Assembly (NCBI GenBank): GCA_023245035.1
Contig: JAHFLD010000002.1
Coordinates: forward strand, 1,501-65,500
Reading direction: 5' to 3'
DNA from: Candidatus Harrisonbacteria bacterium
Lineage (GTDB): Bacteria > Patescibacteriota > Minisyncoccia > UBA6257 > 1-14-0-10-40-38
DNA: 64,000 bases
The notes under the pieces are model-generated. The model did no database searches. It saw only the letters and a list, made by a program, of their open reading frames with translations, and was not told the origin of the DNA. Position numbers and translations under genes: made by a program. Shown one piece after another: positions 1 to 63,364 of this stretch (the first letter of the stretch is position 1; every line of letters begins with the position of its first letter).

Positions 1-3000
1 GCGGTTTCGGGACTCCTCACGCTCTACTCGGGATTTATCTCGAGTGCCTCTTCGAGCGTCTCATCAAACCTTAATGTCTCGGGGGCCTTGAACGCCTCCT
101 CGACCTTGGCTGTTGGCGGCATCGCGACCTTAACCGGACTCGTCTCAACCGCCTCGAGCACGCTGCTCAACGTCAGCAACTTGAGCGGAACGAACGCGAC
201 TACGACCAATCTTTATGTTACAGATGTAGCCTCGCTCAACGGCGCTTCAACCACAATTACCAATCTGGTGACCGTCAATGCCTCAAGCACTAATTCAACA
301 ACGACTAATTTTTATATTGGAAATGGATTCGTATCCAATGGCAGCACGTCGGCCTCGTCCACGATTTTGGGCCGATTGAACATTCCTCAATCCGGTTCGG
401 CGGTTGGAGTTAGTATTTCCGGAGTGAGTACCGGCAGTGGTTTGCTTTTGGGGGCGCCGACAACCGGGAAGAGCATTGATGTTACGGCGGGATCTCTCAC
501 TTCAGGAAGCGTTCTTAGTTATAGCGGAAATACTAATGGCACTTTCGGAACGAGAAGTGGTAACTATATTAATATTGTGCCAACAAGAAATTTGACTTCC
601 AGTGATTCAACCAATTCTGGAAGCTTTATCAACTTGGAGGAGCGTTTACAAAATACCGGAACCGGTATAATGAGTATTACCGGGACGCTGATTACCGCCT
701 CTTCAACTTGTTTTGGTTCCGGACAATGCTATGACGGCGGCGGTTTGATTCTTTTGCGACAAAACAACGCGAACGCGACCGGAACGGTGGCGCGTCTTAT
801 CAGTAACGCATCATCAACGGTGCTCTTGTCGCTTGAGAATGCGGCGAATGTTCTTTATTCAATTGCTCCAACAACCAGTTCGTCCACGTCAATCACTATT
901 AGAACCGGTGGGGCGGCGACGACGACGATTCCGGATCTCTACACTAATATTTGGTCAATCGCAACCAACACCGCTTCCACTCCAGTCTTTACGATTTCAA
1001 CGCTTTCCGGTCCGCGGATTGGAATTGGTACGACGACGCCAAGCGCCGCGCTCGCGGTCAATGGCAGTTTTTACGTAACTGGAAGAAGCATAGCCGATGT
1101 TTTGCTCGCAACCTCAATTGGTATCGGCACCTCTTCACCGGCAGCGACATTTTCTATTCATGGTAATGAGTTGATTTCCGGCACGACGACAGTTGGCGGA
1201 ATTGTGGCGACATCATCAATCGATACCAGCAACAAGTCCGGCTTTACCTGGCTGACTGCCAGCGGTTTGAATGCCCTAGTTTTTGCCACCAATACGCAGG
1301 GAACCTCGGGACAGTATCCAATCTTTTCGATTGGAGCGACGACGACGTCTAACGGTGGTTTGGACTACGCGCGCGTGGCCGTTGGTACGACTACCGATGC
1401 TTTAAACAATGGATTGCGAGAGCAATTTACGGTTGCCGGTCGTCTGCGGCAGACGTGGGCGGTTTACGATAACGACTTCATGTCGGTTGGTGGAGGCAAC
1501 CCGGGCGCGGCAATCGCGAACTCGGATACGGCCAACGTTATTAACGGGGCCTTCCACTTTGATTCCGAAGGTCAGTGTCAATTGACTCAAATCCCGTCAA
1601 CAAATACAGTTGGTAATTCCAAAGGTATTATCGGGCTTCGGGCGTCTTCCGGAACGGGTACCACGGCTCCGGGAAATGGCTGTATTCTTTCGGCCGCCGC
1701 CAATACCGGGGCGACATCAAGTCCGGTTTTTGAGACCAAAGTGGCGATGAGTGCTACCAATAATTCACACGCTTTTGTTGGTTTGGGCTATGTTTCTGCG
1801 GTTGGCGGCGATGCCAATGCCAGTTCTACATTTGAGGTTGGTTTCAAATATGGAACTTCCAGTAACTGGTTTGCCGAGGCGAACGACAATGGCACGGCGA
1901 CGATGGTGGATACCGGAGTTGTGCCGTCAACTTCAGCTTTTCAGACTTTGAGGTTTGAGTTTGATTCCAATAGCAAGGTTTCTTTCTTTATTGATGGAGT
2001 TTTACGGGGTGTTATTACAACCAATATTCCTTCAGGAAGTATGGGGATGCTGTTTAAGTTGGAGCAGACGATTGATACATCTAACCCCGGTATGAGCATT
2101 GATTATGTTAAGTTGTGGGCGGACGATCCACCAGGCGGCAACGGACCCAATAGCGGTGGCGGCGGTAACGATCCGAACTTTAACTTACCACCAAACTTGT
2201 CATCGCTGGACATGATTTATCAGAGCGCGGTAGTTGAGCGTTACAACACCGCGGTGAATGCCCTTAACTATCCGCTTGGCACAGTGATGGCTTTTGATGC
2301 CACTAGTTCGCCGGTCTATGCCGGAGTTTATGTGAAACCAGCGGCTACGACTTATGGCGATTTGGTGATGGGGGTGGTAGCGCATAACGAGGCGGCCAAA
2401 ATTGAACTTGGTTTCGGTAACTTGCCACTGGTTAAAAGTGGTCGAGGGTATGTTCGAGTTCAGGGTCAAGTTAATGCCGGCGATTTGTTGACGATCTCTA
2501 CCACGCCAGGTGTTGCCGAAAAGGCGAATAATTCAAATCTTTTGCTGGGTCGCGCTTTGACTGCCGTGGGTAATAGCGGGTTAGTTTTGGCCGATATAGA
2601 GATTAAACATGAGTCGTCCACAACGACATATTCCAATGCGGTTTTCACGCAATCGAGCTTTACAAGTGCCACGACAACTAATGCCACCTCGACCTCCTTG
2701 TATGTTTCGGGTGCTTTGCGAGTAGCGACCACAACCGCCGGACTTGGTTCAGTTTTTGCCTTGCAGGGCAACGCGCTTTTCTCCGGCGATCTCTCTTTGG
2801 CTAACTTGATTGCGACCGGTACGACCAGATTTGGCGGAATTACATATACCTGGCCGACGACGCAGTCGGCGGCGTGTTTGAAAAATGACGGCGCCGGAGT
2901 TTTGAGCTGGGGCTCGTGCGGTGGAGCCTCCGGATCACAGACGCCGTGGGCGCAAAACATTGATGCCTCCGGCTTCAGCCTTTCCAATGTAACCAACATT

Positions 3001-6000
3001 ACCGCAACCGGAAGTTTGTTGGTTGCGAACGCGACTTCCACCATCACTAATCTGACGACGGTCAATGCCACTTCCACCAACGCGACCTCGACGACTCTTT
3101 ACGTTTCCGGTTCGGCGATATTTGCCGGCGCCTCGACCACGATCACCAACCTCAATGCCACCTTCGCCTCGCTTGTCTCCACAGGCGGCGTCTTCGCTTC
3201 GGGCACTGGCGCGGTTTCGGGACTCCTCACGCTCTACTCGGGCTTTATATCCTCGGCCTCCTCGAGTATCTCTTCGAACCTGAACGTCTCGGGGGCGCTC
3301 AACGCCTCCTCAACTCTGGCCGTAGGCGGACTTGCGACCTTGACCGGTCTGCAGTCAACCGCCTCGAGCACGCTGCTCAATGTGACCAACTTCAGCGGAA
3401 CGAACGGCACCACGAGCAATGAGGCGATTACCGGTTCGCTGGCCGTGACCGGAGCCTCCTCGAGCATCGCCAATCTCAATTTGGTGAACGCGACCTCGAC
3501 GACGCTCTACACCTCCGGACAGTTCCTCGCCGGGGGCGCCAGCAACACGATCTTGGGGACGCTCTACGGCTCAACCTTCAATCCGCAGACCTTGACCTCG
3601 ACTGGGAGTGTCAACGCCTCGGGCACCTTGGCCGTCTCGGGACTGGCCTCGCTCTACTCGGGCTTTATATCCTCGGCCTCCTCGAGCGTCTCCTCGAACC
3701 TGAACGTCTCGGGGGCGCTCAATGCCTCCTCAACTCTGGCCGTAGGCGGACTTGCGACCTTGACCGGTCTGCAGTCAACCGCCTCGAGCACGCTGCTCAA
3801 TGTCAGCAACTTTACCGCGACCAACGGCACCACGACCTCGGCCACCTCGACCTCCTTGTATGTTTCGGGCTCCTTGGGTGTCAACGGCGCCTCGACCACT
3901 ATCACGAACCTTGTAACCGTGAACGCCACGACAACTAATGCCACCTCGACCTCCTTGTATGTTTCGGGTGCTTTGCGAGTAGCGACCACAACCGCCGGAC
4001 TTGGTTCAGTTTTTGCCTTGCAGGGCAACGCGCTTTTCTCCGGCGATCTCTCTTTGGCTAACTTGATTGCGACCGGTACGACCAGATTTGGCGGAATTAC
4101 ATATACCTGGCCGACGACGCAGTCGGCGGCGTGTTTGAAAAATGACGGCGCCGGAGTTTTGAGCTGGGGCTCGTGCGGTGGAGCCTCCGGATCACAGACG
4201 CCGTGGGCGCAAAACATTGATGCCTCCGGCTTCAGCCTTTCCAATGTAACCAACATTACCGCGACGAATAGCATTCTAATCGCGGCTTCTGGTGGGAATA
4301 TTGGAGGACAACTCTCGGTAGTGGCGACTTCGACCGATAGCATGTTATTCATGGGCAGAGCCGCCTCTGGGCAAACGGGGCATTTGTTTGCTTTGCAAGA
4401 TTCAAGCGGGGTTAATTTGTTCAGTGTGAGCGCTACCGGCAATACCTTTGCTTCATCGTCATTGCAAGTTTCGGCGACGACGACCTTGTATGGCGATATT
4501 GTTTTGGACTACACGACGACCGACAGACCGCGTGTTTTGAAGATTGGCGCGCCTAACGGAAATCCCCGAGGTTTGTGGATTGCCACTACGACTGGTGCGG
4601 CCTTAAATACTCCAGGAACTTGGCCATTACTTGTGGTGCAGTCAACTACGACTGGGATGTTGGATTACGCACGAGTTGGGATCGGTACTTCTACAACCTG
4701 GGGTGAGGCGGGCTTGCGGGATCAGTTGACTGTTGCCGGAAGAGCCTACACAACTTGGCAGTACGCGTCGTGTGACTTTGCGGGAGCGTCGCTTACAGCC
4801 GCCGTCGCCGCGGCAACGAGCAATGTTTGCGGTCCCTTTGGATTCTTTATCCATCAAGCCGGTTCGTTGAGTCCTGGTACCACGACACCAACATATGTGA
4901 AGCTCAATTCTACGGGAGGCAGTATTGGTCAGGGGGCGATGCTTGGTACCGTGCCAAACTTTATTTCGGCGACCACCAGTCCGGTACTTGAGGCCTGGGT
5001 TTCGGTGACGAGTATTACAAACGGACATTATCAAGTTGGTTTCTTCGGTGCCACGAGCACGACTTGGGATCCGGCTTGGCAGATGAATAACGGCATCTTC
5101 TTTGTGGCGGAACAAAACTTGAATGGTGGTAACTGGACGGCGGTTAACAAGCGGACGAATATTGATGGCACGGTGGCGAGTACCACAATCGATACCGGCA
5201 TTCCCGGGGCGAGTGGTTTTTCGGCGAGTGGCGTGGCCCAGTATCGGCGCCTTAGAATTGAGGTTAGTACCAGCACAATTTATTACCTGATCAATGGGAG
5301 AATTGTGGCACAGTTGAGTACCACAACTCCGTCCAGGAATTTAACCCCGGCGGTAACGGTGGCCAGTGTTTACGCCGCTGCTAGAAAGGATCTCAACTTA
5401 AGATTGTTGCGCCTATGGAATGACGATCCGGTTGGGGGCGAGGTTGTCGGGGCTCCAGCTTTGGACGACTCAACTCCGGAAGTTTCCGATTTGGATCGCA
5501 ATCATACCGCCGGCAAGTTCTTCTTTACCGGAACTACGACGCCACCCGAGGGCAGTCTGGTTTCCTATGATTACGGGGCATCGACTCATAAGAGTGGATT
5601 GTGGGTAGGTTACGCCACAACAACTTACGAATCCGGTTTGGCTGGCGTCGTGGCCAGTGAGGGTAATTCGGCTCTGCGCTTTGGTTCGGGCGATATTGAT
5701 GTGGCTTTGAGTGGCAAGGCGATGGTGCGAGTAAGCGCTGTGAACGGTGAAATTCATGCCGGGGATTATCTGACTTCGAGCGAGGTTCCAGGTGTGGCGG
5801 TTAAGGCGACGCAATCGGGCTGGATTATTGGTCAGGCCTTTGAGAGTTATTCCGGAGGCGGCGAAGGGGCGGTCTTGGCGAATATCGCCCCCGAATTTAT
5901 GACGGTTGATAAACAGTCAGCTTCCGGCGTGATTGATTCTATTACCGAGACGGTTTCGGAATTGGCGGATTTTGTGGCGCAGAATAGCGCGAAGCTAGTG

Positions 6001-6729
6001 AAGGTTTTTTACGGTAAAATTGTGGCCGCGATCGCGGTGGTTAATAACCTTTTTGTGCACACGGTTACCATCTTGCCGGATGGCGAGCTTGCGGTGCCCG
6101 AGGGCGCGAATCAGATTTCCGGAACTGCGACTATTCAGTCCGGCGCTTCGGAGGTGACGATTTACAACACCAAGGTTACTTCTACTAGCAAGATATTTAT
6201 TACTCCGACAACATTGACCAGTTTGCCGCTTTCGGTGACCAATAAGACGTCGGGGCAGAGCTTTACGGTTAGCGTTCAGGGTACCTTGGTTAATTCGATA
6301 GACTTTGATTGGCTGATAATCGGAGCCTATCCTGCTGGTTTGGGAAATCCGCAGACGCAGCAGAATCAGGCGCCCAATAATTCGGGTGGACAGAGCGGTA
6401 ATTCCGGAGGCCTGGCTCCAGATCAGAATCTTGGCAATGGTTCAGGCGGGGATTCTACCGGTGGAACCGGGGCGGTGATTGTTCCGCCGCCGGATTCGCC
6501 CTTAACGCCACCGGATAGTGGATTAAATAATTCTTCGGGAGACGGTTCTTTGCCGATAATTCCGCCTCCAGATGCCGGACAAGTTAATTCACCGCCAGAT
6601 GCGGGAGTTTCAGCGCCGCCCCCAGATAATGGTTCGGGGCAAGTAACTCCACCACCGGACGCGGGAGTGAATAGCGGTGGCGCTGGCAGCGGGGAGCCGC
6701 CGGATGCCGGTTCGGCGCCGAATCCGTAA
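1..6729 (+). CDS. Very large repetitive S/T/N/G-rich cell-surface protein, 5'-truncated; two ConA/LamG-like lectin modules and a proline-rich C-terminal tail
   Basis: The reading frame is open from base 1, and bases 1-190 repeat bases 3211-3400, so the protein starts upstream of the window. The listed TTG at 88 is probably not the true start. It has ~22-aa periodic repeats (ASTTITNLxTVNATSTNATSTSLYVSG) and IGIGTTTPSAALAVNGS-type motifs. Two blocks end in DYVKLWADDP / LRLWNDDP, resembling ConA-like lectin/LamG folds. The C-terminus carries PPDAG repeats. Antisense ORFs in the track are low-complexity artefacts. Confidence 0.8.
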   Translation, partial: AVSGLLTLYSGFISSASSSVSSNLNVSGALNASSTLAVGGIATLTGLVSTASSTLLNVSNLSGTNATTTNLYVTDVASLNGASTTITNLVTVNASSTNSTTTNFYIGNGFVSNGSTSASSTILGRLNIPQSGSAVGVSISGVSTGSGLLLGAPTTGKSIDVTAGSLTSGSVLSYSGNTNGTFGTRSGNYINIVPTRNLTSSDSTNSGSFINLEERLQNTGTGIMSITGTLITASSTCFGSGQCYDGGGLILLRQNNANATGTVARLISNASSTVLLSLENAANVLYSIAPTTSSSTSITIRTGGAATTTIPDLYTNIWSIATNTASTPVFTISTLSGPRIGIGTTTPSAALAVNGSFYVTGRSIADVLLATSIGIGTSSPAATFSIHGNELISGTTTVGGIVATSSIDTSNKSGFTWLTASGLNALVFATNTQGTSGQYPIFSIGATTTSNGGLDYARVAVGTTTDALNNGLREQFTVAGRLRQTWAVYDNDFMSVGGGNPGAAIANSDTANVINGAFHFDSEGQCQLTQIPSTNTVGNSKGIIGLRASSGTGTTAPGNGCILSAAANTGATSSPVFETKVAMSATNNSHAFVGLGYVSAVGGDANASSTFEVGFKYGTSSNWFAEANDNGTATMVDTGVVPSTSAFQTLRFEFDSNSKVSFFIDGVLRGVITTNIPSGSMGMLFKLEQTIDTSNPGMSIDYVKLWADDPPGGNGPNSGGGGNDPNFNLPPNLSSLDMIYQSAVVERYNTAVNALNYPLGTVMAFDATSSPVYAGVYVKPAATTYGDLVMGVVAHNEAAKIELGFGNLPLVKSGRGYVRVQGQVNAGDLLTISTTPGVAEKANNSNLLLGRALTAVGNSGLVLADIEIKHESSTTTYSNAVFTQSSFTSATTTNATSTSLYVSGALRVATTTAGLGSVFALQGNALFSGDLSLANLIATGTTRFGGITYTWPTTQSAACLKNDGAGVLSWGSCGGASGSQTPWAQNIDASGFSLSNVTNITATGSLLVANATSTITNLTTVNATSTNATSTTLYVSGSAIFAGASTTITNLNATFASLVSTGGVFASGTGAVSGLLTLYSGFISSASSSISSNLNVSGALNASSTLAVGGLATLTGLQSTASSTLLNVTNFSGTNGTTSNEAITGSLAVTGASSSIANLNLVNATSTTLYTSGQFLAGGASNTILGTLYGSTFNPQTLTSTGSVNASGTLAVSGLASLYSGFISSASSSVSSNLNVSGALNASSTLAVGGLATLTGLQSTASSTLLNVSNFTATNGTTTSATSTSLYVSGSLGVNGASTTITNLVTVNATTTNATSTSLYVSGALRVATTTAGLGSVFALQGNALFSGDLSLANLIATGTTRFGGITYTWPTTQSAACLKNDGAGVLSWGSCGGASGSQTPWAQNIDASGFSLSNVTNITATNSILIAASGGNIGGQLSVVATSTDSMLFMGRAASGQTGHLFALQDSSGVNLFSVSATGNTFASSSLQVSATTTLYGDIVLDYTTTDRPRVLKIGAPNGNPRGLWIATTTGAALNTPGTWPLLVVQSTTTGMLDYARVGIGTSTTWGEAGLRDQLTVAGRAYTTWQYASCDFAGASLTAAVAAATSNVCGPFGFFIHQAGSLSPGTTTPTYVKLNSTGGSIGQGAMLGTVPNFISATTSPVLEAWVSVTSITNGHYQVGFFGATSTTWDPAWQMNNGIFFVAEQNLNGGNWTAVNKRTNIDGTVASTTIDTGIPGASGFSASGVAQYRRLRIEVSTSTIYYLINGRIVAQLSTTTPSRNLTPAVTVASVYAAARKDLNLRLLRLWNDDPVGGEVVGAPALDDSTPEVSDLDRNHTAGKFFFTGTTTPPEGSLVSYDYGASTHKSGLWVGYATTTYESGLAGVVASEGNSALRFGSGDIDVALSGKAMVRVSAVNGEIHAGDYLTSSEVPGVAVKATQSGWIIGQAFESYSGGGEGAVLANIAPEFMTVDKQSASGVIDSITETVSELADFVAQNSAKLVKVFYGKIVAAIAVVNNLFVHTVTILPDGELAVPEGANQISGTATIQSGASEVTIYNTKVTSTSKIFITPTTLTSLPLSVTNKTSGQSFTVSVQGTLVNSIDFDWLIIGAYPAGLGNPQTQQNQAPNNSGGQSGNSGGLAPDQNLGNGSGGDSTGGTGAVIVPPPDSPLTPPDSGLNNSSGDGSLPIIPPPDAGQVNSPPDAGVSAPPPDNGSGQVTPPPDAGVNSGGAGSGEPPDAGSAPNP

Positions 6730-10075: not shown

Positions 10076-10198
10076 TTTCGGTTAATCGGGTATGGTTTTT
10101 TTAGTAGTGTTTTTTTTGGTGGAGTAGCGGAATGGTTTGAGACGACAGTTTTGCTTTTCTGTAGTGGTCTCCTACAGGAGAAACTTACCGATCAGCGC

Positions 10199-10285
10199 GG
10201 AGGGGTGGCAGAGCGGTCTAACGCGCCGCACTTGAAATGCGGTATACCCGAAACGGTATCGTGAGTTCGAATCTCACCCCCTCCG
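10199..10285 (+). tRNA. tRNA-Ser (anticodon TGA), CCA not encoded
   Basis: GGAGGGG acceptor pairs with CCCCTCC. Anticodon stem-loop CCGCA-CTTGAAA-TGCGG, long variable arm, T-arm GTGAG-TTCGAAT-CTCAC. Confidence 0.85.
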
Positions 10286-10323
10286 CGCTGGGCAGTAAAC
10301 TAATACATTTTGGGTTGATCTCG

Positions 10324-11219: not shown

Positions 11220-11233
11220 GAGCGGTTCTTTTT

Positions 11234-11295
11234 AATGACTACGAATTTACGAATTTTTACGAATATACGAATAGGATTGCATCAACGAACCCGCC
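11234..11295 (+). repeat. Direct repeat copy 1: tandem TACGAAT heptamer array (gactacgaatttacgaatttttacgaatatacgaatagg...catcaacgaa)
   Basis: Near-identical to 13249-13315. Four TACGAAT heptamers at 8-10 bp spacing. Lies 190 bp upstream of the 11482 CDS. Confidence 0.8.
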
Positions 11296-11481: not shown

Positions 11482-13212
11482 ATGTTCTTGGATAAGGCGT
11501 TTCTGGATCGGGCAATACCGATTGCTCGACAGTTCGTAAGAGCCCCAGTTCCGTATCAGTTTTCGGTTCGCGAGACTGAAGCCCTGAAATTGTTTTTTAC
11601 CAGTGCGACTTCGAGAGTTTTTTTCTTCCGGAATATGCCGCCGAATTTTTCGGCGGCGCTGCTCGCGATGTATTCGCGGCTCAAGAATCAGCGAGGGATT
11701 CGCGGTCATTTTGTTGATACGCTCTTGCCGCTTTTGCTAACGGGGCTTTTGGAGAATTTCTCCGAAGTTTCGCCAAGCGGAGCGATTCATGCCTATCAGG
11801 CTTATCTGACCGGATTGGGCATTAGGTCGCTTGATCAGTTCTGCGAAGCCAAGATAGAGCATCTGGCGGTATTTAAGGATTTCGTGGCGAATGCCACGGG
11901 CGATCCACGACTTGAAAAACAGTTGGCGGATTCACCGAAGATGAAGGCGTTGCTTGATGTGTTTTTGGACAAGTACGGGCACAATTCCATCGCGCGCGGA
12001 GCGGCTCTCACGTTCGCAGTGGAAGACATTTCCATTCTCGCGGCCAAGTCCATTGAGTGGAATCGTCCGGGTTCGGGGTTTATTGAGTTGAGCACGCGGT
12101 TTGTGGATATTTCGCGCGCCAGACAGTATCCAATCTGGGACGAGATTGCCTTAGTTTGCGAAGAGGCGGCGTGCGCGGCCAGAGAGGCGATTGTTCAGGC
12201 GAGCGCGGCTTATCGAACCTTGATTGGTGTGGCGTTTGACGGAATCTTGCCGAAGTTTTTTGAGCAACACTTCGCCCCGCTTTTGCCGGTCAAGGACTTG
12301 AAGTCCGCGGTTCAGGGCGAGGCGTGCGACGTGGCGGGCAATGTTTTGCCGTGCGCGACTTTGACTTCGGTTGGGGTGGCGATTTCCGGCGAGGCTTTTG
12401 ACTCTCTGCTTAAGCATCTGTTGCTTGACGCGACTCCGGAGAACTTTGCTCTGGTTGAATTGATTTTGGCCGAAGCCGCGAAGGTTGGCGGGGATCAGTT
12501 TGCCCGACACTACGAGCCGTCGCCGTGGGAAGTTGAGGGGTGGAGATACTTATCCTCGCAGAATATCATCCAAGGTTTCGGCACGACTTCGCTCTTGATT
12601 GCCGAGGATGTTTTGTGGAATTATTTTCGTTCCGATGGCACGTCCAACGGTTCCGCGGTGTTTGAAGATGTGCTGAGAAAGTTGCCGTTTGAAGAGAGGG
12701 GAGAACACGATCGCTTGCCCTATCATTTTGAAACGGTTTTTGGCACTAGCTTTGGAAAGATGTCTTTTCGTGGTTGGCGAGATTTGCAGAGGCATGTGCT
12801 CGCGACTCACGCGCGGACATTGGTTGATCCGAGTCTCGGTTTTTACCATTACGACAAGCCGGCACCCACCGAATTGGCCGACGTGTTTGACGAGATTCAC
12901 CTGATGAATCGAGCCACGTGGACGGCACTCTGCGGTCGCGGAGTCGCTCCGCTTATCGCGCAGTATGCCATGGCGATGGGTAATCTGGTTGGATTCCTGT
13001 GCGGTGCCAATTTGCGCGAATGGGAGTTCATCCTGTGGCAGAGAAGCGACTTTCAAGTGAATCACGAGGTGCGACAGGTGGCGCTGGGGATTGATCGCGC
13101 CCTGCAGATTCAGTTTCCGTGGTGGCGAAAAATTTCCCGTACCGATCTGACTCCGGCTTATGTGGCCGCTCGTAGTGAAGTTGGCGTGCCGTTGCCGACA
13201 AGTGTTGGTTGA
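11482..13212 (+). CDS. Hypothetical 576-aa protein, bracketed by TACGAAT direct repeats; weak tandem ThyX-like signature (speculative)
   Basis: GGAG RBS 5 nt upstream of the ATG. Two halves carry faint TFAVEDIS...ELSTRF and SFRGWRDLQRHVLATHART segments, reminiscent of the ThyX TFxxEGxS...RHR...SQRY signature. No confident assignment. Confidence 0.5.
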   Translation: MFLDKAFLDRAIPIARQFVRAPVPYQFSVRETEALKLFFTSATSRVFFFRNMPPNFSAALLAMYSRLKNQRGIRGHFVDTLLPLLLTGLLENFSEVSPSGAIHAYQAYLTGLGIRSLDQFCEAKIEHLAVFKDFVANATGDPRLEKQLADSPKMKALLDVFLDKYGHNSIARGAALTFAVEDISILAAKSIEWNRPGSGFIELSTRFVDISRARQYPIWDEIALVCEEAACAAREAIVQASAAYRTLIGVAFDGILPKFFEQHFAPLLPVKDLKSAVQGEACDVAGNVLPCATLTSVGVAISGEAFDSLLKHLLLDATPENFALVELILAEAAKVGGDQFARHYEPSPWEVEGWRYLSSQNIIQGFGTTSLLIAEDVLWNYFRSDGTSNGSAVFEDVLRKLPFEERGEHDRLPYHFETVFGTSFGKMSFRGWRDLQRHVLATHARTLVDPSLGFYHYDKPAPTELADVFDEIHLMNRATWTALCGRGVAPLIAQYAMAMGNLVGFLCGANLREWEFILWQRSDFQVNHEVRQVALGIDRALQIQFPWWRKISRTDLTPAYVAARSEVGVPLPTSVG

Positions 13213-13214
13213 TA

Positions 13215-13248
13215 GCAGAGCCCTGATTTACACTCGGGGCTTTTTTAT
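13215..13248 (+). terminator. Rho-independent terminator (agcccc...ggggct + T-run)
   Basis: GC stem agagccc/gggcttt followed by ttttt, immediately after the stop of the 11482 CDS. Confidence 0.55.
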
Positions 13249-13360
13249 ATGATTACGAATTTACGAATTTTTACGAATATACGAATGGGTACAGGGTGGA
13301 TTACATCAACGAATAACGAATCCTTTGCGAATGTACGAATGGGGAAAAAGATAAGGGTTA
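13249..13360 (+). repeat. Direct repeat copy 2: extended TACGAAT/ACGAAT array (8 CGAAT units)
   Basis: gattacgaatttacgaatttttacgaatatacgaatggg ... aacgaataacgaat ... gcgaatgtacgaatgggg. Matches copy 1 over ~55 bp. Confidence 0.8.
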
Positions 13361-20965: not shown

Positions 20966-21279
20966 GTTAAAACATCCGCATTCGGCGCATTTTTTTGTTG
21001 CGAGCTGTGGTGCTCAACGCAGTACTTGAATAAAGTACAGCTTATTCCGCTCCTCGCCTGCGCCTCAAACTGCGCACGAATGCGGATGTTTCAAGTCACG
21101 ATTGTCGTTCGCGCCTCGTATTTGTTCTTTTTAAATTAAGATACAGTATGCGAAAACTTTTTAGCCTGCCAAGCTTTCCATTCATTCTCCTCGCCCGCGC
21201 CTCAAACTGCATGCCCGAACGATTATATTTAGTCGGGCGGGCGCACGAACGCGGATGTTTCGAGACAACTCTTATTTTT

Positions 21280-31765: not shown

Positions 31766-31896
31766 CACCTCACTTCGTTCTTTAAGAACCCACGGTTCTT
31801 AATCTTTTCCTTCACGGAGGGGACGCAGTTGCTTCCCCTCCGACCCACCCCTCTTTCAAATTCGGTCGACTTTTGCTTTGTGATTTTGTCTTTTTT
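31766..31896 (-). mobile_element. Structured ~130-bp insertion downstream of tRNA-Asp (family copy 1), flanked by a duplicated tRNA 3' end
   Basis: A copy of the tRNA-Asp 3' end (gggcgcggacgaccggatttt) occurs at 31744-31765. In minus-strand reading the order is target end, degenerate reverse-complement of the target end (cgaccgaatttgaa), core aggggtgggtcgg + hairpin ggaggggaagcaactgcgtcccctcc + hairpin ttaagaaccgtgggttcttaa, then the direct copy. Confidence 0.6.
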
Positions 31897-35656: not shown

Positions 35657-35801
35657 AAAAAGAAAATTGGGTAGCTTGTCTACCCGGTTTTCTTTTTAAT
35701 GTTTTGAGGCAGGGATCGAACGGGAAAGGGGTCGGGAAACGGTAGTTTCCCGTGGTGGAAATATTAAAACCGCATGGTTTTAAAAGCGAAGCGCGTGAGA
35801 T
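35657..35801 (+). mobile_element. Structured ~145-bp insertion downstream of the CAT tRNA (family copy 2), flanked by a 16-bp duplication of the tRNA 3' end
   Basis: tccctgccgtcggcac occurs at 35641-35656 and again at 35802-35817, the second copy followed by cca. Between them lie a terminator hairpin, the reverse-complement of the tRNA T-arm (ggcagggatcgaac), and the core aaggggtcgggaaacggtagtttcccgtggtggaa...aaaaccgcatggtttt, which has two hairpins. Confidence 0.7.
35669..35698 (+). terminator. Rho-independent terminator after the tRNA (gggtagcttgtctaccc + T-run)
   Basis: Perfect 6-bp GC-rich stem followed by ggttttcttttt. Confidence 0.7.
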
Positions 35802-35913
35802 TCCCTGCCGTCGGCACCACGTAGGGAAGATTGATGCCTCGCGCGGGCTTTGCCTTGTATAGCGCACTGAAGTTGTGTGTATTCTTCAAGCTTTGCGTAC
35901 ATTCTTCAAGCGT

Positions 35914-41138: not shown

Positions 41139-41705
41139 ATGGATTCATCCTCAAAACAAAAACTTTCCGCAGGAAACAACGAGCGCCATTGGTACGCGAT
41201 TCATACCTATTCCGGCTACGAGGACGCGGTGGTGCGTTACTTGCGCCAGCGCGTGGATTCGCTGGGCATGAACGACAAGATTTTTAACATCATTGTGCCT
41301 TTGGAGAAAAAGGTAAAGATTAAAAACGGCAAGCGTCGCGAGGTTTCCGAGAAAATTTATCCCGGATATGTTTTAGTAGACATGGCCTTGACCGACGATT
41401 CTTGGTACGTGGTGCGCAATACGCCAAGGGTGACCGGTTTTGTTGGGTCTGATAGCACGACACCAGTTCCGCTTTCCAAGTCGGAGATAGACCTTCTGAT
41501 GTCTCGCATGGGCAATCAAGAGACGAAGTTTAAGATTGATCTTCAGGTTGGCGAGTCGGTTAAGATTACCGATGGGCCGTTTAAGGATTATGACGCCAAG
41601 GTTTCGGAAGTTGACGAGGAGAAGGGCAAGGTGAAGGTGTTGGTGCCGATTTTTGGGCGCGACACGGTGGTGGAGTTAGACTCACTTCAAGTCCAGAAGC
41701 TCTAA
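41139..41705 (+). CDS. nusG: Transcription termination/antitermination factor NusG
   Basis: NGN domain WYAIHTYSGYEDAV. C-terminal KOW (GESVKITDGPFKDYDAKV). Confidence 0.9.
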   Translation: MDSSSKQKLSAGNNERHWYAIHTYSGYEDAVVRYLRQRVDSLGMNDKIFNIIVPLEKKVKIKNGKRREVSEKIYPGYVLVDMALTDDSWYVVRNTPRVTGFVGSDSTTPVPLSKSEIDLLMSRMGNQETKFKIDLQVGESVKITDGPFKDYDAKVSEVDEEKGKVKVLVPIFGRDTVVELDSLQVQKL

Positions 41706-41724
41706 GGCGCCCTATCTTTTCTTC

Positions 41725-41825
41725 GCATTTCGTTGTCGTAACCTGCGTCAGTCGGTCGCGGTACTGTGACTTAAGTACCGCTTCCTCCTTTACTCGGTTA
41801 CTCCTAGAACTGCAAAGAAAATACA
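41725..41825 (+). repeat. Conserved ~90-bp intergenic module, copy B (between nusG and rplK)
   Basis: ttcgttgtcgtaacctgcgtcagtcggtcgcggtactgtgacttaagtaccgcttcctcctttactcggttactcctagaactgcaaagaaaatac. Aligns with copies A and C. Confidence 0.75.
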
Positions 41826-41976
41826 CGGGCGGTGTGGGGCGTTGCAAGTTCATTAGTTCTGTCACATATTTTGTTTAGCGAGTTGGAAATTGTAGCTGTC
41901 TTGTTTTTTGCTCGTATTTGTTGGAGTTTGCATTTTTACCCTAAACCCTATAAGCTAATCGCTAAACGCTATTTAT

Positions 41977-42399
41977 ATGGCCAAACCAATCAAAACCGTA
42001 TTAAAACTTCAGCTGGATGCGGGCAAGGCGAATCCCGCGCCGCCAGTCGGAACAGCTTTGGGACCTCACGGCATTAATATCGCCGATTTTTGCAAGAAAT
42101 TTAACGAAGCTACCAAGGACATGATGGGGGATGTGGTTCCGGCGGAAATCACGATTTTCGAGGACCGCACTTTTACTTTTAAGCTCAAAACTCCTCCGGC
42201 GTCTTCGCTTTTAAAAAAGGCGGCGGGAATCGAGAAGGGATCTGGTGAGCCAAACAAGAAAAAAGTGGGAACAGTGACTAAGGCTCAAGTTCGGGAGATT
42301 GCGGAGAAAAAAATGATAGATTTGAATACGACCAACTTGGAGGCGGCGGAGAAGATTATCGCCGGCACGGCGAGAAACATGGGGATCGAAGTTAAATAG
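41977..42399 (+). CDS. rplK: 50S ribosomal protein L11
   Basis: [34 protein letters not shown]. 140 aa. Confidence 0.93.
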
Positions 42400-42571
42400 A
42401 CCCCCATGTTTCTGTGAAGGGGTCGGGAAACGGTAGTTTCCCGTGGCGGAATTATTCAAACCGAGGGGTTTGAAGGAGGAGTGAAGCGACGACGAAACAT
42501 GGGTCTAAACGTTACCGAGTAACGTCGCCCGATCTTTGCTAGGCAAAGATTTAGGGATCGAAGTTAAATAG
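42400..42571 (+). mobile_element. Structured insertion downstream of rplK (family copy 3), with a duplicated rplK 3' end and a 31-nt core identical to copy 2
   Basis: The rplK end agaaacatgggg is followed by its reverse complement ccccatgtttct (42402-42413). The core aaggggtcgggaaacggtagtttcccgtggcgga...caaaccgaggggtttg follows. Direct copies of the rplK end then recur as gaaacatggg (42494-42503) and gggatcgaagttaaatag (42553-42570). rplA does not follow. Confidence 0.65.
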
Positions 42572-42575
42572 GCTC

Positions 42576-42709
42576 GGACTCTTCTTTTGCGGGGACCGGC
42601 TTTGATTTTTTTCCAGCGAAAAATCAAGCCTTCCTCTCGCGCTTCGCAATTCCTGACGGAATACCAAGCTGCGAAGCGCTCCGAGAGCTCCCCGCACAAA
42701 GAAGAGTCC
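42576..42709 (+). repeat. 134-bp nested palindrome (outer arms ggactcttcttttgcgggga / tccccgcacaaagaagagtcc; inner gcgcttcgca / tgcgaagcgc)
   Basis: Read directly from the sequence. Potential long hairpin RNA or cruciform. Confidence 0.7.
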
Positions 42710-42900
42710 TCGCTGGTTAGGGGAGAGAACTAGCGTTTAGGGTTCAGGGTCAAGCGTTTAGGCTTCAAAGCACAAAAGTCCTCGCTGGTGGGGGAATGAA
42801 TAGCGTTTGGCGGTTAGCGTTTAGGTGAATAGCATTAAGCGATTAGTGAGTAGGTCTTAAAATATGAAAGTCCTTGCGGTTCGAGGGTTGGGCTAGCGTT
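42700..42900 (+). repeat. Three degenerate tandem repeats of ~90 bp (unit begins aagtcctcgctggtgggg...tagcgtttagg)
   Basis: Units start at about 42700, 42790 and 42868. The related motif tcctcgctgggtgg recurs at 61872 and 61964. Confidence 0.6.
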
Positions 42901-42972
42901 GAGCGTTTACGGTAAGAAGTGTTTTTTAAATTTTTTGTACACAGCTTGGTTGGGCTTGGTTTATGATATAGT

Positions 42973-43923
42973 TTGGCTATGATCCATAAAAACTTTTGGC
43001 ATTATTTTGGGGTTTTGATGGCGATTATTGTGGTTAATGTGGGGTTTCTTAATTTTTCAACCAGTAAGATTGCCAGCGAGGTTGATACCTTGTCGAGTGT
43101 AATTACATCTACCGGTTCTTCGCCAACAGCGGCGGCTCCGGCCGAAGAAGTCGGTGGAACTTCGGGTGGCGGGTCTTCTCTAACTCAAAGAATTTGCGTT
43201 GACGATCCAAGTCCGGAAAATGACGGAATGAAGCCGGAGTTCGGTAAGGATGGCAAGATAGCCGGCGCCACTTATTCTTTAGAGTTCCAAAATGGAATAC
43301 CAGCCGATCATCGCAATCCAAATGGGACTCCTTTTACAATTGGTCAATATATTGCCGGGGTTAGTGTGTTTGGCGTTGACAGAAGTGAAGCGGGGGGTCT
43401 GGCCGATAGTGATTATAGCTATGACAACAACGATTCGGCTAAATGTGATGGAGTGCAATTAGATAAGGGTCGTCTCTTTAGTCCATCTTCCTACTATGGT
43501 GGTGTCGCTGGCAAGGTAAATGGCAAACCTTTTAGAGCTACCCTTTCCGTTGGTGTTGACCAGGGCAGAGATTGCAAAGAGTTAGGGCCCATTACAGCGG
43601 CAGAAAGCAAGCCGGTAAATACGAGTGGGAGTGCGAATCCAGTACTTAATCCAAATTCTTCGGCGGTAGTAGTTACCGAACAGGGTGGATCTTCCGGACA
43701 GCAGGGTGCGGTTATTAGCTCTGAATCCGGGGCGGTGGTATTGGAATATTTCTGCGGTTCAGATAATCACATCAAGGCGAAATACGTGGCCAAGGTAAAT
43801 AAGAGCGTTAATAAGAGAAAATATGCCCCAACTTTTCCCGCGAGTTCGGGCTTGAACAATCTGCTTAGTGATTTTGGATGGGGTCGGTTATTGGGTAGTT
43901 ATGCTTTTGGTTTTAAGGATTAA
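42973..43923 (+). CDS. Hypothetical secreted/membrane-anchored protein
   Basis: N-terminal TM/signal helix FGVLMAIIVVNVGFLNF. Paralogous N-terminus to the next gene. Confidence 0.55.
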   Translation: MAMIHKNFWHYFGVLMAIIVVNVGFLNFSTSKIASEVDTLSSVITSTGSSPTAAAPAEEVGGTSGGGSSLTQRICVDDPSPENDGMKPEFGKDGKIAGATYSLEFQNGIPADHRNPNGTPFTIGQYIAGVSVFGVDRSEAGGLADSDYSYDNNDSAKCDGVQLDKGRLFSPSSYYGGVAGKVNGKPFRATLSVGVDQGRDCKELGPITAAESKPVNTSGSANPVLNPNSSAVVVTEQGGSSGQQGAVISSESGAVVLEYFCGSDNHIKAKYVAKVNKSVNKRKYAPTFPASSGLNNLLSDFGWGRLLGSYAFGFKD

Positions 43924-43946: not shown

Positions 43947-44654
43947 ATGATCCATTCCAGATTTTTAATCTTTTTTAGTATTTTGCTGGGAATTGTGGTT
44001 TTGAATGTTGTTAGTCTTAACATTTTGGTTGATAAAGTGGCGATGCGAGTGAGTGAGGTTAAAAGCGAAGTTTCTTTGGCAAGTGCCAGTTCGGCAGTGT
44101 CTGGACAGGTAGTTAGATTTTGTGCCGATACGGATCATGCGATTGATTACGCGGTGTCGGGGGCGACGATGGAGGTCAGCATTCCGAGTCAAGGAATTTT
44201 TGGCGGGGCGAGTTATCCAAGAAATCCAACTCGGGTAACCGATGCCTTATCGTTGATTCGCGCCGGTCAGCCGACGGTTAGCAATCCCACCAATATTGGC
44301 CCTTGTACGCAGGCTGGCGGCTATTTTACCGATTCAGCCGGGAGGAGGCAGAGTTTTTATTTTCAGCTGTGCCGAGATCAGGGAATTAATACCGGATCTG
44401 GTTCGGTTAAACCCGGCGAGCCGCCGATTCAGGGTTCTGGAATTAAACGCCTTACGGAATTTTATTGCAGTCGTAATTCTTTGACTTCCGTTGATAAAAC
44501 GGTGCCAAACTTCGCGAGCGCAAAAGTGCCTTTGTTCTTTGGTTTTTTTGGGCGATTGGCTGATGCTTTGGGAATTACCTATGCCAATCCGCCGGTGGCT
44601 TCCGGCAATTTGACGACGCAGTGGTTTGTGAATGCCGATCACGAGACGCAGTAG
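43947..44654 (+). CDS. Hypothetical secreted/membrane-anchored protein (paralog of upstream gene)
   Basis: MIHSRFLIFFSILLGIVVLNVVSLNILVDKV parallels MIHKNFWHYFGVLMAIIVVNVGFLNFSTSKI. Cys-containing extracellular domain. Confidence 0.55.
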   Translation: MIHSRFLIFFSILLGIVVLNVVSLNILVDKVAMRVSEVKSEVSLASASSAVSGQVVRFCADTDHAIDYAVSGATMEVSIPSQGIFGGASYPRNPTRVTDALSLIRAGQPTVSNPTNIGPCTQAGGYFTDSAGRRQSFYFQLCRDQGINTGSGSVKPGEPPIQGSGIKRLTEFYCSRNSLTSVDKTVPNFASAKVPLFFGFFGRLADALGITYANPPVASGNLTTQWFVNADHETQ

Positions 44655-48563: not shown

Positions 48564-48719
48564 GTAATTATATTCCGCTCTCTAACAGTCATCTGCTTTG
48601 TTGCGTCCTTCGATCCTCCCTCACAGTACCAAAATGGTACAGCTCGGTTCGGTACTTGGACGCGCCTCGCATCTGAATTGTTATAGAGCGGAATTATTTT
48701 TAATTGCTTATTTCATTTA

Positions 48720-61684: not shown

Positions 61685-61775
61685 TGGGTTGTGGATAAGG
61701 GTGGGGATAAGTCCGGAATCTGGGGATAAGTGGGCGCTCGGACACATCTCTCTCAAGAGACGGGATAACATCTTT
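61685..61775 (+). promoter_or_regulatory. Cluster of GGATAAG boxes (TTGTGGATAAGG, TGGGGATAAGT x2, GGGATAACA) upstream of mraZ: candidate MraZ operator direct repeats or DnaA boxes
   Basis: TGTGGATAA matches the DnaA box consensus. TGGGGATAAGT repeats twice at 18-bp spacing. GTGGG-type repeats are the known MraZ operator type. Nested inverted repeats follow at 61741-61869. Confidence 0.45.
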
Positions 61776-62008
61776 TCCAACGAAGCTGTTTCCCTGTCTC
61801 TCGGCGAAATGATTTTGTTATTCAGCAAAAACCCAGCTCATTTCGCCTGCGAGAACCTCTTGAGGAGAGATGTGTCCTCGCTGGGTGGTTGAGCGGAAAA
61901 CCGATCTTTTTAAGTTTCCGAGAGTTGCCCGCCTGTTCGGCGGGCAAGTCCCAAAATACAAGAATCCTCGCTGGGTGGAAGCCAATCCTTATTTTTTAAA
62001 AAATCAAA

Positions 62009-62440
62009 ATGTTCATCGGGGAATATCAACACAATATAGACGACAAGGGGAGAATGGCGTTGCCGGTAAAGTTTCGCAAGGATTTGACCGATGGCGCGAT
62101 TATCACCAAGGGATTGGATGCTTGTCTTTTTGTTTTTACCAAAGCCGAATGGGCCACTTTGGCGGCAAAATTGGCGCAGATGCCTTTGGCCAACGCTCCG
62201 GCCAGAGCTTTTGCCCGTTTAATGCTGGCCGGCGCGATGGATGTTGATATTGACGCGCAAGGCCGAGTGTTGGTGCCGGATTATCTTCGTAAATACGCGG
62301 GACTCAAGAAAGCCACGGTGATTGCCGGTGTGTATAGCCGACTGGAGATTTGGGACGAGGAAGCTTGGAATCGCTACAAGGGCAAGACGGAGTCGGCGTC
62401 GGATGAGATTGCCGAACAGCTTGGCGGTCTTGGTATCTAA
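62009..62440 (+). CDS. mraZ: Transcriptional regulator MraZ
   Basis: MFIGEYQHNIDDKGRMALPVKFR. Two DXXXR-containing halves. Position before rsmH. Confidence 0.9.
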   Translation: MFIGEYQHNIDDKGRMALPVKFRKDLTDGAIITKGLDACLFVFTKAEWATLAAKLAQMPLANAPARAFARLMLAGAMDVDIDAQGRVLVPDYLRKYAGLKKATVIAGVYSRLEIWDEEAWNRYKGKTESASDEIAEQLGGLGI

Positions 62441-62446
62441 AAAAAT

Positions 62447-63364
62447 ATGCACACTCCAGTTTTAACCAATGAAGTTCTTGGTTTGCTTGATCCGAGGCCG
62501 GGACAATTTGTACTGGATGGAACCGTCGGTTCCGGCGGACACGCGCTTGAGTTGCTAAAAAAAATTCTTCCGGATGGAAAACTTTTGGCAATTGACGCGG
62601 ATCGATATTCTATTTTAGCGGCGGAACGGACGCTGGTCGCCGCCTTCGGGCGCGAGATTGTCGGCAGTCATGTGATTTTTGAACACGACACTTACGCGCG
62701 GGCGGCGCAGGCCGTTAGCCGTCATGGGTTTCCTTTGGTGCACGCCGCCTTGTTGGATCTGGGTTTTTCTTCCGATCAGATTGATTCGGCTGATCGTCCG
62801 CCACGCGGTTTTTCTTTTTTGTCTGATGAGCCATTGCTGATGACTTACAATGACGAGACGGTGGCGGTGCGGGATTTTTTACCGGAGTTGAGCGTTGCCG
62901 ACCTGGTAAAAATTCTTCGCGAATTTGGCGAAGAGAGGTACGCGATGAAAATCGCGACAGCGATCAAAGAACGCGAGCGAGTGCGCCCCTTTTTAACCAC
63001 GCGCGATTTGTCGGAAACCATTACCGCCGCGATTCCTCCGCGTTACGCGCGTGGCCGGATTCATCCGGCGACGCGAACTTTTATGGCTTTGCGGATTTAC
63101 GCCAACCAGGAGCTTAATCAGTTAAAACTTTTCTTGGCCGACATTTCTTTGATTGTGGCCACCGGAGGCCGGGTCGGAGTCATCTCCTTTCATTCATTGG
63201 AAGATCGCCTTGTAAAGCGCGACTTTTTGGCATTGGCAAAGGAAAATCGCGGGCGAATTATTACTAAAAAACCGGTAACCGCTTCGGCTAACGAGATCAG
63301 ACAAAATGCTCGCGCCCGTTCGGCAAAATTCCGCGTCTTGGAACTTGGTTCAAACACTTTATGA
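62447..63364 (+). CDS. rsmH: 16S rRNA (cytosine1402-N4)-methyltransferase RsmH
   Basis: PVLTNEVLGLL and DGTVGSGGHA SAM motif. Confidence 0.92.
   Translation: MHTPVLTNEVLGLLDPRPGQFVLDGTVGSGGHALELLKKILPDGKLLAIDADRYSILAAERTLVAAFGREIVGSHVIFEHDTYARAAQAVSRHGFPLVHAALLDLGFSSDQIDSADRPPRGFSFLSDEPLLMTYNDETVAVRDFLPELSVADLVKILREFGEERYAMKIATAIKERERVRPFLTTRDLSETITAAIPPRYARGRIHPATRTFMALRIYANQELNQLKLFLADISLIVATGGRVGVISFHSLEDRLVKRDFLALAKENRGRIITKKPVTASANEIRQNARARSAKFRVLELGSNTL

Follow-up and report, generated by a model that had tools for sequence, protein, structure and literature searches.

The closest described analogue of the element reported here comes from Rickettsia, in which palindromic repeats of ~150 bp are found inserted in frame within open reading frames (ORFs) (PMC10969869). 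Analysis of a 64,000-nucleotide stretch of a Candidatus Harrisonbacteria genome (GenBank assembly GCA_023245035.1, contig JAHFLD010000002.1, positions 1,501 to 65,500 of the forward strand; this whole stretch is referred to as the window) revealed that a palindrome downstream of rplK, the gene for ribosomal protein L11, is one copy of an uncatalogued, structure-conserved repeat dispersed in Parcubacteria, here called the three-way-junction (TWJ) element. Genes are dense in the window and lie mostly on its plus strand; the genome is that of a member of the Parcubacteria. The Candidate Phyla Radiation (CPR, or Patescibacteria), to which it belongs, makes up a large share of bacterial diversity; its genomes are considered streamlined, with non-coding DNA that has hardly been explored, and nothing relevant on such repeats or structured RNAs in CPR/Patescibacteria was found within the literature searched.

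Relation to Known Repeats

The Rickettsia palindromic elements (RPE-1 to RPE-10) and TWJ are both dispersed palindromic repeats of ~100–150 bp that occupy intergenic and in-frame positions and keep the ORF open, in the reduced genome of a host-dependent bacterium, with no associated transposase known and with a host protein that is presumably tolerant. They come from different phyla, and with TWJ also being branched, sequence homology is not expected. An RPE is a simple hairpin, whereas TWJ branches at a three-way junction whose unpaired core is conserved; each RPE family has a conserved peptide read in one frame, whereas TWJ is read in three frames and it is the nucleic-acid motif that is conserved; and RPEs occupy dozens of unrelated genes, whereas the in-frame copies of TWJ seen so far are in mnmA only. 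Predicted translation of a structured repeat inside a protein-coding gene, as for TWJ in three frames of a conserved tRNA-modification enzyme, has until now been considered a Rickettsia peculiarity.

[quoted passage not shown] Classical MITEs have conserved terminal inverted repeats, target-site duplications, and near-identical copies; TWJ shows neither of the first two, and its terminal stems share no sequence even between the two copies in the window. The REP/BIME (REPIN) repeats mobilized by RAYT transposases and the hairpin ends of the IS200/IS605 type resemble TWJ in that a single-stranded hairpin fold rather than a long sequence would be recognized, and REPs are likewise extragenic, abundant, and often found behind stop codons. 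However, REPs are imperfect palindromes of 20–40 nt with a conserved GTAG head and an accompanying RAYT gene, whereas TWJ is four times longer and branched, and no Y1/HUH transposase was seen in any locus examined (2–64 kb). Integron attC sites, which are recognized as folded single strands, also lie directly after ORFs and combine variable sequence with a conserved palindromic fold. Unlike attC, TWJ has no R''/R' boxes, integron integrase, or cassette arrays, its hosts are core housekeeping genes, and it has a copy inside a gene. TWJ fails the defining tests for a classical MITE, REP/RAYT, attC, a terminator, CRISPR, tRNA, and every Rfam family.

A Three-way Junction Downstream of rplK

The features on which the following analysis is based are listed below, together with the evidence for each; R1 and R2 are covariance models of TWJ, R2 being the rebuilt version, and R3 is a model of the E1 core.

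42572–42716, plus strand: TWJ copy 1 (fold z-score; R1, 78 bits; R2, 84.8 bits)
61736–61884, plus strand: TWJ copy 2, in the mraZ leader (R1, 49 bits, E = 5e-12; R2, 78.9 bits)
41977–42399, plus strand: rplK (ribosomal protein L11), an ORF of 140 amino acids preceding E1 and TWJ copy 1
42400–42553, plus strand: element E1, a structured insertion (direct repeat, inverted repeats; R3, 95 bits)
62009–62440 and 62447–63364: mraZ and rsmH, respectively (Pfam)

An earlier reading of the window, made from its sequence alone (the original prediction), placed a nested palindrome at 42576–42709 as a feature specific to this locus. Its position was exact and its fold is far more stable than expected, with a minimum free energy of −75.8 kcal/mol compared with −47.8 ± 4.3 for shuffled sequences (z = −6.55; 0 of 200 shuffles as good). 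The outer arms, 42576–42595 and 42689–42709, form 20 pairs with one bulged base (stem P1), and the predicted 10-bp inner stem is perfect, 42639–42648 pairing with 42670–42679. A hairpin at 42598–42630 (P2), whose loop CCAGCG lies at 42613–42618, had been missed, so the palindrome is present but its architecture is that of a three-way junction rather than a simple nesting. The third arm, P3 (42634–42687), comprises the inner stem, the 7-nt bulge ACCAAGC (42663–42669), and an inner hairpin (42649–42662). Copy 1 is flanked by GCTCGGAC on its 5' side and by TCCTCGCTGG (42707–42716) on its 3' side.

In the nearest other genome (L003; comparison loci are designated by L and a number), whose L11 is 85% identical, an element of the same architecture directly follows the rplK stop codon. 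All three of its stems differ in sequence from those in the window, yet are fully paired, and the short unpaired motifs are the same. Because rplK is directly followed by TWJ in L003, E1 was inserted later in the window, between rplK and an older TWJ. Copy 1 is probably part of the rplK transcript, as no canonical terminator lies between rplK and the next gene: no terminator-like site was found on the plus strand in 41650–43050, and the promoter and terminator scan gave a single weak promoter-like site (42938–42967). Copy 1 is not itself an intrinsic terminator, since no U run follows P1, and relatives have ordinary hairpin-plus-U terminators at the same position after rplK. Pairing of the P2 loop (CCAGCG) with the 3' flank (CGCTGG) as a pseudoknot fits both copies in the window and, with a compensatory change, L003; it was rejected as a family feature, being missing in L128, L086, L092, L118, L124, and L130.

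A Dispersed Family Conserved in Structure

A metagenome scan with a pattern built from three conserved unpaired motifs returned 55 loci, 12 of which are true homologues with complementary P3 arms. All 12 share the P2 loop (CUCCAGCGG or CUCCUGCGG), which was not part of the search pattern. In a consensus fold of 13 sequences (RNAalifold), 23 of the 32 pairs show compensatory changes. With 21 copies, standard pairs fill 92.3% of cells compared with 61.7 ± 1.2% in shuffles, 29 of the 32 pairs change on both sides, and sliding the 3' partners by 1–3 columns in either direction lowers pairing to 35–52%.

Model R1 matched the second copy in the window at 61746–61870 (49 bits, E ~5e-12). The termini of copy 2 match those of copy 1 (GCTCGGAC ... 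GTCCTCGCTGG) and its stem sequences are unrelated. Further R1 matches were found in L018 (two), L118 (three), L028, L029, and L030. Model R2 recovered 27 copies from 601 kb of related Parcubacteria DNA; 24 of these scored ≥63.8 bits, whereas chance pattern matches score ≤19.6 bits. Single genomes can carry several copies: two in the window, three within 8.4 kb in L118, and two each in L018 and L139. The prediction of a recurring, structured, non-coding feature was right, and that of a locus-specific palindrome gives way to one member of a dispersed family. No covariance-model match was found in 182 kb of viral contigs, and carriage by phages or plasmids was set aside, as the viral-contig scans gave chance matches only. 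In Rfam 15, nothing overlaps the element in the window at the gathering score or at E ≤ 10, and there was no match at E ≤ 1 in five other element-bearing loci.

The element measures ~140–150 nt, with P1 (15–25 bp) joining its ends and enclosing the two hairpins. Approximately 35 nucleotides are conserved in the junction and loops, namely GAAAC, the P2 loop CUCCAGCGG, CUCUCG, the bulge ACCAAGC, and GGCUCCGAGA, together with the terminal motifs GCTCRG and TCGCT. Apart from the recurrence of GCTCRG and TCGCT, no copy shares P1 arm sequence with another, copies 1 and 2 included. Stem sequences differ completely between copies; the stems need only to pair.

Placement of the Copies and the Insertions in MnmA

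Eight to ten independent copies start 0–44 nt after the upstream stop codon in sense orientation, behind rplK and behind genes resembling nusB, trxB, an S1-domain gene, and others. Several copies lie in 5' leaders (including window copy 2 before mraZ, L118 3820–3944, and one before rplK in L011), and a few are antisense (L130, between trmD and rplS, and L118 2024–2144, each antisense to both neighbors; and L139 80–204). L118 carries both orientations within 3 kb, and the neighbors of its three copies are ftsH, an S1-domain gene, and similar ordinary genes. The element ends show no consistent direct repeat indicative of a target-site duplication, and no transposase, integrase, or recombinase gene was seen near the copies in loci of 2–64 kb. 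Neither the openness of reading frames across all copies, which has no discriminating power as stops are rare in most frames, nor orientation relative to replication as judged from local GC skew was informative.

Three direct repeats of (T)GGGGATAAG are located at 61691–61733, upstream of TWJ copy 2 and mraZ. We take these to resemble the TGGG-type direct repeats bound by MraZ in other bacteria. If they are the MraZ operator, copy 2 is inserted in the mraZ leader.

Within genes, the element was found in mnmA only, among all 27 copies. In the MnmA proteins of L086, L088, and L103 it is inserted in frame between the motifs GHYVR and KDQSYF, adding ~45 residues and no stop codon, and the other two frames were confirmed by the covariance model on DNA (L138 10435–10556 and L139 9236–9358). 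The protein sample comprised the 120 best homologues of MnmA, all of them intact predicted proteins, of which 105 contain both anchor motifs. The native linker of 17–25 residues is present in 12 of the 105 and a linker of >45 residues in 47, and element-derived peptides were recognized in at least 31 of these 47 (12, 15, and 4 in the three frames). The peptide depends on the frame: at the bulge, ACC AAG CTG gives TKL and GAC CAA GCT gives DQA, and the loop CTCCAGCGG yields LPA, APAA, or SSG; an example of a peptide spanning the insert is ...FRKQHNFLPARKFASLSPR.... The peptide is thus free to vary, and what is kept is the nucleic-acid fold and an open frame.

Two homologues resemble deletion derivatives, near-precise in P0017 and internal in P0040, and the insert therefore appears dispensable. 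A further 13 (P0050, P0052, P0066, P0067, P0077, P0087, and others) carry peptides such as NSKFKIQNSKF, and in L140 (10001–11185) a peptide of this type is encoded by an in-frame hairpin of heptanucleotide repeats, with (CCAATTT)n facing (AATTCAA)n. The MnmA loop is a hotspot for hairpin-forming insertions, the heptamer hairpins sharing the TWJ site. At the mnmA site, the similar 9-nt strings GGCTCAGCC and GGCTTCGCC are close to the terminal motifs of TWJ itself. Searching other proteins for the element-encoded peptides gave no candidates, the short query and the word index of the search probably being limiting. For annotation, TWJ-type elements matter in that they make predicted proteins too long, give rise to false ORFs, and let operons look broken.

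Strand Symmetry and Upkeep of the Pairing

In a selected RNA, G·U pairs should far outnumber A·C oppositions on the functional strand. The model-defined helices contain 28 G·U-type and 19 A·C-type cells, and 15 of the 28 fall at a single conserved U·G that closes the P2 loop on the sense strand (15 of 21 copies); outside this position there are 13 G·U-type and 19 A·C-type cells. Upon free folding, the antisense strand is more stable on average and has more G·U, a comparison confounded by its being also G-richer. Assignment of a strand from these counts and energies was therefore abandoned as ambiguous: the wobble pairs have no strand bias, and the pairing, essentially Watson-Crick, looks symmetric between the strands. 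The base-pair statistics thus leave the non-coding RNA locus of the original prediction as a possible reading only.

Even so, the pairing is actively kept up. Between L003 and L128, whose rplK genes are 94.4% identical, the element shows nine differences, four of which make up two fully compensatory double substitutions in P1, and by a rough estimate the odds of both arising by chance are ~1e-3. Such upkeep can arise from selection or from DNA-level correction of quasi-palindromes by template switching between the arms, a process known from quasipalindrome mutagenesis in Escherichia coli. Strong covariation without an RNA-strand signature serves as a warning that DNA palindromes can pass covariation tests.

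Origin and Role of the Element

TWJ is probably, with considerable room for doubt, a non-autonomous selfish palindromic DNA element of the MITE or RPE type. This interpretation is drawn from its multicopy nature, occurrence in either orientation and in unrelated hosts, in-frame tolerance, deletion derivatives, and strand-symmetric pairing. Such an element would settle mainly just 3' of stop codons and could also persist in frame, and be translated, within a surface loop of MnmA that tolerates it. It would be, or would once have been, mobile, with the conserved unpaired nucleotides presumably acting as a recognition surface for a trans-acting enzyme on folded single-stranded DNA or RNA, and its pairing may be kept partly by palindrome correction through template switching between the arms. 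At rplK it would be co-transcribed and could act incidentally as a 3'-end hairpin. With no transposase in sight, a selfish element of this kind points to an undescribed mobilization route.

Several observations weigh against a selfish origin. Neither a transposase nor any other candidate mobilizing gene was seen near any copy, no target-site duplication was found, and sequence conservation is lacking in the terminal inverted repeats. In-frame occupancy was seen in mnmA only and could stem from a single ancient insertion. Orthologous copies (window and L003; mnmA across many species) keep their fold over long divergence, the conservation of ~35 unpaired nucleotides exceeds what a decaying selfish element should show and fits a host-selected function, and most copies are sense-oriented directly behind stop codons.

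A possible but clearly less probable explanation is that TWJ is a host-selected, cis-acting RNA module of mRNA 3' ends and leaders, serving as a stabilizer against 3' exonucleases, a processing site, or a site for a lineage-specific RNA-binding protein, with the conserved junction as recognition surface. The sense copies closely following stop codons are as expected of such a module, as are the riboswitch-like conservation of unpaired nucleotides, the strong covariation, the fold kept intact between the window and L003, the compensatory changes between close relatives, and the probable presence of copy 1 in the rplK transcript. The U·G closing the P2 loop on the sense strand also counts in its favor. 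Against it, G·U is not enriched over A·C on either strand and the antisense strand on average folds better. An RNA function is also hard to reconcile with the antisense copies, with in-ORF copies read in three frames, with host genes that are functionally unrelated, with ordinary hairpin-plus-U terminators in relatives at the position occupied by copy 1, and with the lack of any Rfam match. The selfish and RNA-module explanations are compatible, since both sets of features would be expected of a selfish element that has been domesticated.

It is unlikely, in our estimation, that TWJ is a DNA-level site, i.e. a folded single-strand or cruciform substrate for a site-specific recombinase or for a replication or repair factor, comparable with attC or a folded phage attP. 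Strand-symmetric, almost purely Watson-Crick pairing and freely varying stem sequences within a fixed structure are what such a site would show, its placement directly behind ORFs resembles that of attC, and the neighboring E1 has att-like direct repeats of 11–19 bp at gene 3' ends. However, neither an integrase or recombinase gene nor a cassette-like array was seen in the loci examined, inspection showed the attC R''/R' boxes (GTTRRRY) to be absent from the termini, the neighbors are housekeeping genes, and copies lying within 3 kb of one another in L118 have opposite orientations.

It is very improbable that TWJ is tRNA-derived or resembles a tRNA on its minus strand. The reverse complement contains motifs (GGAGC...GC-AGCUUGGUA...GCGAGAGG) reminiscent of an acceptor strand, of a D-loop, and of the beginning of a variable region, four of the 55 pattern matches are genuine tRNA-Pro genes on the opposite strand, and it is the minus strand that on average folds more stably. 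Yet ARAGORN finds no tRNA at either copy in the window, and the Rfam tRNA model (RF00005) gives no match at E ≤ 1 in five element-bearing loci and the window region, so that tRNA-likeness is largely refuted. The element has three helices rather than four, with no T-loop and no anticodon arm, and the "D-loop" string lies in the 10-bp stem beside an extra hairpin.

Absence of rplA

The palindrome had been described as replacing rplA at its expected position, which was an expectation rather than an observation and is wrong for this lineage. In a search with L1 proteins from loci that have rplA as queries, only 18 of 82 related loci were found to carry the gene downstream of rplK; all closest relatives are among the 64 loci lacking it, and the genes downstream of rplK vary. 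Loss of uL1 in a subgroup of Parcubacteria is reported by Brown et al. (2015), as cited by Tsurumaki et al. (2022; PMC9297842), and this subgroup overlaps lineages without the anti-Shine-Dalgarno motif (PMC9297842), with which the absence of a Shine-Dalgarno sequence before rplK in the window is consistent. The L1-binding leader (GUGGGAG-hairpin-ACCAC) was seen in eight relatives that retain rplA, and the motif was not found next to rplK in the window. A remnant of the L1 leader was accordingly rejected, as the motif occurs only in loci with rplA, and so was a remnant of the L10 leader, which was found only in L059. As rplA is missing from the whole lineage, it was not displaced by the palindrome.

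The weakest explanation, going back to the original prediction, in which a local hotspot or scar of recombination took out rplA and divided the L11-L1 operon, can claim three repeat types piled up here with local duplications and an 18-bp direct repeat, and an E. coli Chi string (GCTGGTGG) at 42784, but is given almost no credence, because the Chi-like string is only weakly over-represented (five compared with 1.2 expected, a count that 1 of 100 shuffles reaches) and its rplA part is refuted by a lineage-wide absence of rplA with varying downstream genes, a published loss of uL1, and the lack of any L1 leader remnant, so that nothing was broken at this locus.

Between rplK and rplA in L049 (3423–3890), three tandem structured units of ~100 nt (..CCAGAGCGAAGCGAAGCTCCCTAAGACCGGTC..GGACCCCCTGGTCCGCCACAGAAA) precede the L1 leader motif.

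Tandem Units and Heptamer Arrays

The repeats that follow copy 1, and the related array that precedes rplK, are as follows.

~42690–42768, 42769–42859, and 42860–42935, plus strand: degenerate tandem units (unit alignment)
42731–42765, 42801–42855, and 42894–42915, plus strand: decayed (TAGCGTT)n microsatellite (autocorrelation at lags 7, 14, and 21; phased layout)
41935–41976, plus strand: (CTAAACG)n array, the inverse of the downstream arrays, abutting the rplK start codon

Three tandem repeats of ~90 bp had been predicted. Three units are indeed present, starting at ~42703, 42775, and 42866; their spacing is instead 72 and 91 nt, they can be aligned over the first ~55 nt only, and Tandem Repeats Finder reported no period of ~90 nt. 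The first unit reads agagtcctcgctggttagggg and not the ...ggtgggg given for it. Each unit consists of the end of the P1 3' arm (GCACAAA..), the motif GTCCTCGCTGG, ~14 nt, and a (TAGCGTT)n array, and unit 2 repeats GCACAAA..GTCCTCGCTGGT of the TWJ 3' arm. The units are thus local duplications across the 3' boundary of TWJ into a heptamer microsatellite. Microsatellites of this sort represent a further class of repeat that forms hairpins and is common in the lineage.

The tagcgttt sub-repeats noted earlier are real and form a 7-nt array, with a lag-7 autocorrelation of 0.435 compared with 0.267 ± 0.033 in shuffles. The heptamer motif is matched 30 times compared with 17 expected, 12 of the matches lying within 41940–42911, and the microsatellite amounts to ~27 phased units. 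Recurrence of the unit core upstream of mraZ was also confirmed: the window has four exact instances of TCCTCGCTGG (42707, 42779, 61875, and 61965), each located at an element copy's 3' end or 72–92 nt beyond it. This string is the terminal motif of TWJ plus one solo copy per locus, the solo copy after copy 2 being 61965–61974. As predicted, the repeats are not CRISPR, the units being degenerate and built from heptamer repeats, with spacings of 72 and 91 nt; the sole match to a CRISPR direct-repeat model reached 21 bits against a cut-off of 50.

The (CTAAACG)n array has a period of 7 and 4.4 copies according to Tandem Repeats Finder, and a lag-7 autocorrelation of 0.525 compared with 0.277 in shuffles. 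It is 83% complementary over 30 nt to 42796–42825, and in the predicted fold of the leader (41873–41976) it pairs locally with 41873–41890. Hairpins with heptamer arms are found between nusG and rplK in many Parcubacteria (window, L016, L025, L028, L017, L013, and L007). The unit upstream of rplK is genome-specific (TAGGGTA/CTAACCC, TTTTAGC/GCTAAAA, TACGAAT/ATTCGTA), often in inverted pairs, and the 3' arm reaches the rplK start codon, with no Shine-Dalgarno sequence. These hairpins may represent a lineage-specific rplK leader, and the heptamer arrays are a possible protein-binding array, as had been suggested.

E1, an Element at Gene 3' Ends

E1, a multicopy element of ~150 nt, is composed of segment T' (42400–42413), a conserved two-hairpin core (42414–42491), and segment T2 (42494–42522). 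On either side of it, 18 bp of the rplK 3' end, GGGATCGAAGTTAAATAG, form an exact direct repeat (42382–42399 and 42554–42571). The R3 core recurs in the window after tRNA-Met (35723–35800; region 35700–35820) and tRNA-Asp (31766–31850, minus strand), and elsewhere after rplK in L030, L021, and L039, after gyrB in L069 (1618–1910), and in L064. The six readable copies (window rplK, tRNA-Met, tRNA-Asp, L069, L030, and L021) share the layout T–spacer–T'–core–T2, in which T is a segment near the host gene 3' end, T' is the reverse complement of T, and T2 is a second direct copy of the 3' end. Complementarity between T and T' was 12/13, 14/14, 14/15, and 16/16 bases in the four copies compared, the complementary segment being 13–16 nt long, and the direct repeats span 11–19 bp, with 19 bp after tRNA-Asp.

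At gyrB in L069 the last 27 codons are duplicated, and the two versions differ at 16 nt, with 14 synonymous codon changes and one non-synonymous. After tRNA-Met, T2 carries the CCA that is absent from the gene itself. This pattern looks like integration into gene 3' ends, the element supplying a replacement 3' end. E1 has the look of a miniature integrative element with arms that match its target. As one core is found at four kinds of target, with arms that differ, the arms could conceivably specify the target, a suggestion that derives from comparison of these sequences; if E1 does select its targets through base-pairing arms, it would be relevant to tool discovery.

More tentatively than for the selfish origin of TWJ alone, Parcubacteria may hold a set of small structure-defined elements, TWJ and E1 among them, that move or persist by a fold-specific or nucleic-acid-guided mechanism. 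TWJ would then be the first "coding palindrome" outside Rickettsia, with its junction core as a recognition surface or perhaps a catalytic RNA, and E1, picking targets via its own arms, would be a programmable miniature integrative element.

Several families of structured repeats of 125–150 nt occur in these genomes. A second palindromic family of ~125 nt is represented in the window at 20967–21094 and 48572–48694, with outer stems of 16–18 bp, z ~−6.6, and the shared core TTTGTTGCG ... CAGTAC-loop-GTACAGCT ... CCTCGC. One copy is located right after a T2SSF/pilC-like gene and the other between thrS and dnaE, antisense to both.

Other Features of the Window

The gene order around the palindrome is gyrB, secE, nusG, rplK, 573 nt without a credible ORF, two ORFs, and gatB. 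Pfam Ribosomal_L11_N and Ribosomal_L11 match an identical L11 protein in contigs of the same species, and the nearest relatives of this protein (65–85% identity) all come from metagenome-assembled genomes of Parcubacteria/Paceibacteria. The two ORFs are as follows.

42973–43923 and 43947–44654: membrane-type ORFs without a family, between the gap after rplK and gatB

Hairpins spanning the rplK stop codon are found in the window (42373–42413), in L028 (3398–3441), and in L017 (3410–3455), with one just after rplK in L019. In these, the last rplK codons (..AAYATGGG..) pair with the sequence right after the stop, with covariation in several relatives.

The first 6.6 kb of the window is spanned by an ORF of 2213 amino acids (88–6729). 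A tRNA-Ser gene (10199–10286) lies inside an extended stem of 21 bp in which its leader pairs with its trailer (10185–10298), and the trailer TCCGCGCTGG is one mismatch from the TWJ terminal motif TCCTCGCTGG. Two near-identical repeats of ~65 nt, each with four TACGAAT units (11228–11290 and 13241–13315), lie each directly after a terminator-like hairpin and together flank the gene at 11482–13212.

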